This document shows, one piece after another, positions 63,289 to 63,366 of a stretch of 64,000 nucleotides of DNA. Position 1 is the stretch's first letter. Every line of letters starts with the position of its first letter. The notes under the pieces are model-generated. The model ran no database searches, was not told where the DNA came from, and worked only from the letters and a program-made list of their open reading frames with translations. The stretch is from Escherichia phage 4MG. Where the stretch lies: the sequence record NC_022968.1, one strand, 5' to 3'. Position numbers and translations under genes: made by a program.

Positions 63289-63366
63289 TGGTGCGCCCTC
63301 CCAGACTCGAACTGGGAACCCTGAAGTCTTAAGCCTCATGCCTCTACCAGATTGGACCAAGAGCGC
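63289..63366 (-). tRNA. tRNA-Leu (UAA), short variable arm
   Basis: 78 nt; anticodon arm TGAGG-CTTAAGA-CTTCA; G37; A73; 5-nt variable loop. Confidence 0.55.

Follow-up and report, generated by a model that had tools for sequence, protein, structure and literature searches.

The gene and its fold

The subject of this paper is a transfer RNA (tRNA) gene of Escherichia phage 4MG (NC_022968.1), analysed within a 64,000-nucleotide stretch of the phage sequence that we call the window. The gene occupies 78 nucleotides (nt) on the minus strand, at 63289..63366, and had been described in an earlier note as a leucine tRNA gene with anticodon UAA, discriminator A73 and a variable loop of only 5 nt. ARAGORN and Rfam agree on this description. 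ARAGORN calls tRNA-Leu(taa) at exactly these coordinates, and the Rfam model RF00005 matches full-length (model positions 1-71; 63292..63366(-)) with 46.3 bits, where the gathering score is 29, and with E = 1.1e-6 for the whole window. A covariance model could in principle have shifted the anticodon. The Rfam alignment does not do so: it keeps CUUAAGA as the anticodon loop, giving UAA as the anticodon, G at position 37 and GGGUU, 5 nt, as the variable loop.

Written as the reverse complement of 63289..63366, the gene reads GCGCTCT TG GTC CAATCTGGTAGA GGC A TGAGG CTTAAGA CTTCA GGGTT CCCAG TTCGAGT CTGGG AGGGCGC A CCA (parts in Table 1). Its stems are fully paired (7/7, 3/3, 5/5 and 5/5), and three of the pairs are G-U. 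A type II tRNALeu would be expected to have discriminator A73 and a stemmed variable arm of more than 10 nt; here A73 is present, at 63292, and the loop has only 5 nt.

The most direct comparison is with leuZ, the E. coli gene with the same anticodon. The two genes share anticodon UAA, A73, U8-G9, a 3-bp D stem, U48 and a canonical T loop, and the D arm of leuZ, GTG GAATCGGTAGA CAC, has the same layout (A14 A15 .. G18 G19 U20 A20a) as that of the 4MG gene. However, leuZ, at 87 nt, has a long variable arm that we read as 16 nt, together with A37 in a UUUAAAA anticodon loop and G13, whereas the phage gene has its 5-nt loop, G37, C13 and one extra D-loop nucleotide. The difference at position 37 also bears on the earlier note, which had counted G37 among the leucine-like marks of the gene. 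For a reader of UUA and UUG this does not hold, since leuZ has A37 and, in the family described below, A37 is found in 27 of the 41 members with anticodon UAA and G37 in the other 14.

Table 1. Positions in the window of the tRNA-Leu(UAA) gene and its parts, of the surrounding tRNA cluster and of other genes discussed in the text
Feature	Position	Strand	Remarks
tRNA-Leu(UAA), whole gene	63289..63366	-	78 nt, including encoded CCA (63289..63291) and discriminator A73 (63292)
Acceptor stem, 5' strand GCGCTCT	63360..63366	-	pairs with AGGGCGC (63293..63299); 7 pairs, one U-G
U8, G9 and D arm	63340..63359	-	stem GTC/GGC (3 bp), 12-nt loop CAATCTGGTAGA; A14, A15, G18G19, U20, A20a
Anticodon arm TGAGG CTTAAGA CTTCA	63322..63338	-	UAA at 63329..63331, G37 at 63328, from the Rfam alignment
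Variable loop GGGTT	63317..63321	-	5 nt; last base U48, partner of A15
T arm CCCAG TTCGAGT CTGGG	63300..63316	-	canonical T loop: U54 U55 C56, A58
tRNA cluster holding the gene	60179..63824	-	about 26 tRNA or tRNA-like genes on one strand, mostly one U34 tRNA per codon box
Companion tRNA-Leu(UAG)	60428..60504	-	77 nt, short-armed; variable loop ATTTT, A73; 56.5 bits with covariance model R1
tRNA called Asn, anticodon GUU	61197..61285	-	89 nt, G73, type II shape, 3-bp D stem
Conventional tRNA-His(GUG)	61038..61111		
His-like cloverleaf, anticodon GUG	61991..62063	-	missed by ARAGORN and Rfam
tRNA with anticodon UUU (Lys)	61459..61542	-	84 nt; Rfam 50.5 bits, missed by ARAGORN
tRNA-like gene	62264..62333	-	70 nt, 6-nt anticodon loop; Rfam 38 bits
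tRNA with anticodon CAU	60179..60257	-	79 nt, enlarged D region; Rfam only (45 bits)
tRNA, likely anticodon UCC (Gly)	62428..62498	-	71 nt; Rfam only, weak (27.2 bits)
tRNA with anticodon GCG (Arg)	63670..63743	-	
Open reading frame of 474 amino acids	58640..60064	-	directly downstream of the cluster
Open reading frame of 125 amino acids	62678..63055		

Relatives of the gene in phages and bacteria

The 4MG gene is one of many. We scanned IMG/VR and GTDB contigs (one genome per species) with the D-arm pattern CCAAT N1-2 GGYAGAGGC RY NNNN YT NNN R, which fixes neither the anticodon nor the variable loop, T arm, acceptor stem or discriminator and puts no constraint on U8 or U48. It describes a D arm with the motif C12 C13 A14 A15 U .. 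G18 G19 Y A G A G G C and a 3-bp D stem (also CCAAT..GGCAGAGGC). There were at least 120 matches in IMG/VR and at least 120 in GTDB, and parsing gave 195 distinct sequences with good stems; all family counts in this paper are among the matches listed. The 4MG gene fits the pattern and has a parse score of 14/14.

The tRNAs that ARAGORN detected over the scan matches are all 73-79 nt long and all have a leucine anticodon. Although the pattern leaves the anticodon free, no non-leucine anticodon occurs in the 195 distinct tRNAs (0/195): UAG is found in 101 of them, UAA in 41, CAA in 31, CAG in 17, GAG in 4 and AAG in 1. U8 is present in 195/195, A73 in 194/195, U48 in 193/195 and a 5-nt variable loop in 186/195. 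The 4MG gene shows the same set, with a loop GGGUU ending in U48, A73 and the leucine anticodon UAA. One conserved body bearing all six leucine anticodons, from two codon boxes, and no others is the pattern expected of an identity that lies in the body, and by comparison it speaks strongly for leucine. In the Certrevirus relatives PBES02, F1M1E and DU_PP_I the same body carries anticodon CAA, as expected if identity lies in the body. Thus the comparison strongly supports the leucine reading of the earlier note, to which the tRNALeu-type D arm and the uniformly leucine anticodons of the motif-bearing tRNAs both point.

The shared shape can be followed in the helices as well. In 48 bacterial members of the family the cloverleaf is 98.4% paired and the covariation score is 0.787; shuffles give 0.19 and slid partners no more than 0.153. 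From these 48 members we built a covariance model, R1; the same-length bacterial sequences selected include none more than 76% identical to the 4MG gene. With R1 the gene scores 66.9 bits and ranks first among the roughly 26 tRNAs of its cluster, the next scoring 57.5 bits. The margin of about 9 bits is modest, because any tRNA fits the shape. Short leucine genes also take the top R1 rank in the loci of phages GAP31, KpGranit, My1 and KVP40 and in locus L008. By its sequence, then, the 4MG gene is a member of the short-arm family, and it lacks the long arm that defines tRNALeu(UAA) of the E. coli kind.

Where these genes are found differs between viruses and cells. On viral contigs the family gene sits in tRNA clusters, 107 of 118 viral loci having more than one tRNA, compared with 29 of 107 genome loci. 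In bacterial genomes (GTDB contigs L141-L260) a lone family gene is found at 78 of the 107 loci, mostly in Actinomycetota, including Amycolatopsis, Kutzneria, Prauserella, Nocardioides and Mycobacterium. Dense arrays also occur there, with 12 loci having at least 10 tRNAs in 8 kb, and the family is present within arrays that hold 14-34 tRNA genes to 8 kb, among others in Planctomycetota, Cyanobacteria (Microcoleus), Myxococcota and Cellvibrionaceae. The family is most likely a widespread, horizontally mobile group of short-arm leucine tRNAs of phages, tRNA arrays and Actinomycetota.

The window comes from a phage of the Vequintavirinae. Its closest relative is Cronobacter phage GAP31, to which the tRNA region of the window is 94% identical over 92% of 4 kb, and whose ortholog is already annotated as a 78-nt tRNA-Leu. 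A BLAST search with the 78-nt gene against a phage collection returned 183 records at an E-value of 1e-3 or better, which span relatives as well as unrelated groups (Klebsiella Sugarlandvirus, Pectobacterium Myunavirus and Vibrio Schizotequatrovirus). In KpGranit (Sugarlandvirus) the gene reads ACCCACT TG GTC CAATCTGGTAGA GGC A TGAGG CTTAAGA CTTCA GGGTT CCCGG TTCGAGT CCGGG AGTGGGT A CCA, and the record annotates it with tRNAscan-SE 2.0 as Leu TAA, with a score of 54.9. The orthologs of My1 (Myunavirus) and Vibrio phage KVP40 are annotated tRNA-Leu and have the same plan; KVP40 has two short genes (tRNA-Leu-1 and tRNA-Leu-2), for UUA and UUG, the second with anticodon CAA. All of these genes, that of GAP31 included, have A73 and a 5-nt loop ending in U, as in 4MG. 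They differ from it in their co-varied acceptor stems, in the altered anticodon arm of GAP31, and in the A37 and 11-nt D loop of KVP40.

The way in which the copies diverge is informative. The anticodon arm is identical in 4MG, KpGranit and My1, and the core is almost the same. The acceptor stem, on the other hand, has co-varied, to ACCCACT/AGTGGGT in KpGranit and with compensatory changes in My1 and KVP40 too, while the T stem CCCAG/CTGGG of 4MG corresponds to a compensatory CCCGG/CCGGG in GAP31 and KpGranit. A near-identical interior combined with acceptor and T stems that change by compensatory pairs (4MG, KpGranit, My1) is, on this sequence comparison, the mark of purifying selection. Moreover, the short-arm leucine genes are conserved in phages infecting E. 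coli, Klebsiella, Cronobacter, Salmonella, Pectobacterium and Vibrio, which speaks for their being used. The gene, its cloverleaf, its membership in the family, its conservation with compensatory changes and the restriction of the family to leucine anticodons are directly established.

Some copies have taken a different course. The copies of GAP31 (L001 3772..3849), of E. coli phage LNA4 (L261 301..378), which likewise carries the UAA gene, and of L008 (4569..4643) have 7 substitutions, all within the anticodon arm, which reads TGGGT GTTAAGC TCCCA in place of the TGAGG CTTAAGA CTTCA of 4MG, the rest being almost unchanged. These changes could reflect decay or a targeted change of the loop, as has been proposed for the evasion of anticodon nucleases.

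How did a short gene come to stand at this locus? In related phages the same position holds a short gene in GAP31, L003, L006 and L008, in L007 an 89-nt Leu(UAA) of true type II shape, and in PVP-SE1 a gene of 86 nt whose variable region, 13 nt long, is unpaired. We considered a local deletion of the arm from such a long-arm ortholog and rejected it. The D arm is GTC CAATCTGGTAGA GGC in 4MG compared with GTG GAAATGGAGATA CAC and GTG GTATTGGCAGTA CAC in PVP-SE1 and L007; the downstream Arg(UCU) gene of PVP-SE1 is near-identical while its Leu gene, with its D arm, differs; and the short gene is almost identical to genes of unrelated phage families. Therefore the replacement of a cassette by a mobile member of the family fits better, and this is what the history of the locus looks like from the sequences at hand. 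A host or prophage copy might have shown up in 5,426 complete E. coli genomes, but a BLAST search of these with the 78-nt gene gave no match at that sensitivity.

The companion leucine gene and the rest of the cluster

The cluster is syntenic with those of GAP31 and PVP-SE1, and its only other leucine gene is the companion Leu(UAG). From the two, the earlier note had suggested that the phage decodes CUA and UUA with type I-shaped leucine tRNAs. The short-armed pair stands, for both codons, except that anticodon UAA, with U34, should read UUG as well as UUA. The two genes are not of one kind. The D arm of Leu(UAG) is E. coli-like, ATG GAATTGGTATA CGT, without the CCAAT..GGYAGAGGC motif, which places the gene outside the family, and at the corresponding position the Leu(UAG) gene of relatives is long-armed, with 86-87 nt (L007 8483..8569; L008 8238..8323). 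Because the D arm differs and the Leu(UAG) genes of the relatives are long-armed, the two short leucine tRNAs of this phage probably have separate origins, Leu(UAG) having reached the short shape by a separate route.

A scan for promoters and terminators around the Leu(UAA) gene found no promoter-like site directly upstream of it; the sites seen lie downstream, at about 63060..63145, ahead of the 125-amino-acid open reading frame (ORF). A Pfam scan of the two flanking ORFs of Table 1 returned no family, and nothing in the sequence suggests a phage-encoded synthetase or tRNA-modifying partner beside the cluster. The 474-amino-acid ORF is a homolog of GAP31_193, and its N-terminus (GGTLTSLF...DLDLYF) resembles a nucleotidyltransferase motif, by eye only.

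Several other genes of the cluster are unusual in their own right. In the Asn(GUU) gene the variable arm, CTGGAGCAATCCACAAC, is 17 nt long and includes a 4-bp stem; the arm of GAP31 is CGGGAGCAATCCCCGAC, with changes on both sides of the arm stem. Its counterparts are 85 nt long in PVP-SE1 and of a normal 75-78 nt in KpGranit, My1 and KVP40. This is a class switch opposite to that of the leucine genes, a long-arm body with an Asn anticodon, and it raises the question of whether the asparaginyl-tRNA synthetase, the seryl-tRNA synthetase or both would charge it. Besides the conventional His(GUG) gene there is the His-like cloverleaf, GTGGCCT AA GCATT TATCAGAT GATGT TCAAC CTGTGAC GTTGA GGAA GTGGG AGCGATA CCCAC AGGTCAC C CCA, with a His-like C73, an encoded CCA, a T loop AGCGATA and a D loop without GG; GAP31 keeps this cloverleaf, with an A-T pair of the anticodon stem turned into G-C as a compensatory change. 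The Lys(UUU) gene has a D loop of about 20 nt, GCC AAGCGGCGACGTATGTCTAA GGC, and no CCA inside the Rfam match, and its counterparts in GAP31 and PVP-SE1 are annotated tRNA-Lys, with 86-87 nt.

The remaining oddities concern assignment. The 70-nt tRNA-like gene is 'tRNA-???' in ARAGORN and is annotated pseudo/tRNA-OTHER in GAP31. The CAU gene has a counterpart annotated as tRNA-Met in GAP31, and ARAGORN reads the PVP-SE1 copy as Ala(ggc). The weakly scoring gene with likely anticodon UCC stands in the tRNA-Gly slot of GAP31. Anticodon GCG is read as Arg in a cluster that also holds Arg(ACG) and Arg(UCU), and PVP-SE1 has tRNA-Ile(GAU) at the corresponding position. In bacteria the Arg codon box that GCG would read is usually served by ACG, with inosine.

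Charging, rival explanations and significance

The explanation that we favour, with a probability of roughly 0.78, is that the gene encodes a functional, type I-shaped phage tRNA-Leu(UAA), which would be charged by the host leucyl-tRNA synthetase (LeuRS) and decode UUA and UUG. Its expression, its leucylation by an enterobacterial LeuRS and its role in decoding are predicted from sequence. It would be transcribed with the minus-strand tRNA cluster and, having its own CCA end, be processed by host enzymes. The host LeuRS would recognise A73 and the elbow of the D and T loops (U8-A14, A15-U48, G18G19, A20a), rather than the anticodon or a long arm, and U34 would extend decoding from UUA to UUG. 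The tRNA would then be part of a nearly complete phage set that keeps phage translation independent of the host tRNA pool. On one view, the tRNAs carried by large lytic phages serve independence from a host pool that is depleted or attacked in infection (PMC10264068), and the near-complete, U34-rich set of 4MG fits this view.

Could a tRNA without the long arm be leucylated in an enterobacterial host? For E. coli LeuRS the identity elements are A73, A15-U48, G18G19, A20a and the tertiary pairs linking D loop and T loop, and tRNALeu variants lacking both the long arm and the anticodon arm remain charged (PMC9976931). In the 4MG gene U8, A14, A15 and U48, the bases of U8-A14 and of the A15-U48 Levitt pair, are all present, the D loop contains GGUA (G18G19, A20a), and the T loop UUCGAGU supplies the bases for G18:U55, G19-C56 and U54:A58, pairs that we infer from the sequence. 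Moreover, for type I tRNALeu a 5-nt loop that retains nucleotide 48 was the shortest with relatively high activity (PMC6614811).

Two known kinds of short-armed tRNALeu help to place the gene. The type I tRNALeu(CAA) of Streptomyces coelicolor has in common with it a 5-nt variable loop, A73, coexistence with type II tRNAs and the identity element U8-A14, and is charged by its own LeuRS and by human mitochondrial LeuRS (Fan et al. 2019, NAR; PMC6614811). It differs in its anticodon CAA and in being chromosomal, in a high-GC Gram-positive bacterium, whereas the gene studied here is found in phages of Enterobacterales. The likeness is drawn from the published description; many Actinomycetota genomes carry the CCAAT..GGYAGAGGC family. 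Animal mitochondrial tRNALeu(UUR) shares the type I shape and UAA, with A73 and A14 as identity elements (PMC9976931). The resemblance is probably convergent. In mitochondrial tRNAs the D and T loops are reduced or atypical, and a dedicated LeuRS serves them; the D and T loops of the phage gene are fully of the canonical bacterial type.

A number of observations weigh against a functional tRNA charged by the host enzyme. UUA makes up just 66 of the 1,199 leucine codons (5.5%) in the 43 long ORFs of the window, where it and CUA (5.8%) are the two rarest leucine codons, and because UUA is rare in the phage, codon compensation is a weak rationale for the gene. G37 following A36, unusual in a UUR reader, fits neither the A36-A37-A38 context that MiaA meets in E. 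coli tRNALeu(UAA) nor the G36-G37 context in which TrmD makes m1G37. The D loop, CAAUCUGGUAGA, has 12 nt, with one nucleotide more before G18G19 than in leuZ and other E. coli tRNALeu and in most family members (11 nt), and the placement of G18G19 reportedly matters for identity. The copies of GAP31, LNA4 and L008 have a U31-U39 mismatch together with G32/C38, which by pairing could make the loop smaller, so decay or different selection may be acting on some of the lineage's copies. By nearest-neighbour energies the sequence alone folds, at minimum energy, into an alternative hairpin of -25.1 kcal/mol, compared with -21.3 kcal/mol for the cloverleaf; here, however, the cloverleaf is supported by covariation across relatives, which on a sequence comparison outweighs the energy result. 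In vitro, E. coli LeuRS (EcLeuRS) failed to leucylate a transcript of the type I tRNALeu(CAA) from S. coelicolor, and the study characterises the enzyme as one that charges type II tRNAs only (PMC6614811). Because of this negative result, obtained with a tRNA of different sequence, leucylation by an enterobacterial enzyme is a real question and not a formality.

If the enterobacterial enzyme does not charge the gene product, or if the tRNA goes unused, the gene would be a decaying or non-functional relic in a mosaic tRNA cluster. The failure of EcLeuRS with a natural type I tRNALeu (PMC6614811) and the rarity of UUA point in this direction, as do the mismatched anticodon stem of the GAP31-type copies and the degenerate tRNAs of the same cluster, such as the tRNA-like gene with a 6-nt anticodon loop and the aberrant His-like cloverleaf. 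Yet the stems of the 4MG gene are intact, its T loop is canonical and its CCA encoded, every helix is preserved by compensatory substitutions across phage families, and the same gene is kept in the 183 phage records found by BLAST, so that we regard a relic as improbable. Less probable still, and very improbable, is that the tRNA receives an amino acid other than leucine, as it might from the anticodon-reading phenylalanyl-tRNA synthetase (PheRS), UUA and UUG then being recoded or mistranslated. Such a reading can appeal to the absence of the long arm that normally marks tRNALeu, and to A35, A36, A73, U20 and G10, which overlap the identity set of E. coli tRNAPhe. It has to contend with the lack of G34, a major PheRS determinant, and with a body that carries all six leucine anticodons and no other in 195 distinct members.

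A different kind of explanation, which would be an addition to the one we favour rather than a replacement for it, is that the short arm is itself selected. The arm would have been lost to escape factors of the host or of competitors that recognise tRNALeu by its arm or its type II shape, among them tRNA-targeting defence nucleases and toxins, while host LeuRS still charges the product. The concentration of the family in viral contigs and dense arrays, as seen in the proportions of loci with more than one tRNA given above, is consistent with this, and so is the coexistence in phages of short leucine tRNAs with normal long-arm Ser and Tyr tRNAs. Phage tRNAs have been proposed to resist tRNA-targeting nucleases by sequence changes (PMC10264068), and between close relatives the gene's own anticodon arm evolves quickly, as the 7 substitutions in GAP31, LNA4 and L008 indicate. 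In the literature searched, however, we found no bacterial nuclease with specificity for type II tRNAs or for the variable arm; a defence nuclease of that specificity was considered and set aside as being without support, since the bacterial Schlafen that was studied cuts type I tRNAs (among them Lys, Ala, Met) in the anticodon arm (PMC13056530). Relatives with long-arm leucine genes (L007, PVP-SE1, T5, and My1 with its UAG gene) do well, and the lone chromosomal type I gene of many Actinomycetota looks like housekeeping use. Selection for the missing arm is, in our view, unlikely, if somewhat less so than a relic.

To what extent is any of this new? A 2023 review describes tRNALeu as long-armed everywhere except in animal mitochondria (PMC9976931). 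In our search of the literature, which was incomplete, the S. coelicolor paper (PMC6614811) was the only one on type I tRNALeu and the sole bacterial case found; the papers searched on tRNA arrays and on the tRNAs of phage Sf14 do not mention loss of the variable arm, and the phage records and papers searched for the genes of GAP31, KpGranit, My1 and KVP40 make no comment on the missing long arm. The gene is already annotated as tRNA-Leu in public phage genomes, while its shape and the breadth of its family appear to have gone unremarked. Annotation programs assign these genes to tRNA-Leu as it is, so that the practical gain for annotation is small.

The wider significance lies in the biology of the family. 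The short-arm Leu(UAA) is, on the sequence comparisons above, not peculiar to 4MG; it is one member of a widespread family, with close relatives annotated as tRNA-Leu. Short-arm leucine tRNAs are common in phages, among them those infecting E. coli, Klebsiella, Salmonella, Cronobacter, Pectobacterium and Vibrio, and likewise in bacterial tRNA arrays and Actinomycetota, with all six leucine anticodons on one conserved body. It is a tentative and rather doubtful suggestion that short-arm tRNALeu is a mobile, phage-spread adaptation, one that has shed the long arm but kept the elbow determinants of LeuRS and so would be chargeable by enterobacterial LeuRS and invisible to host or rival factors that single out tRNALeu or type II tRNAs by their shape. 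If it were true, leucine decoding would survive the tRNA depletion induced by defence, and the published view that EcLeuRS charges type II tRNALeu only would be wrong for this natural substrate. More generally, if an enterobacterial LeuRS does charge the 4MG tRNA, the rules of leucine identity would be refined and compact leucine tRNA scaffolds would become available for engineering. It would also become an answerable question why mobile elements favour the short form.

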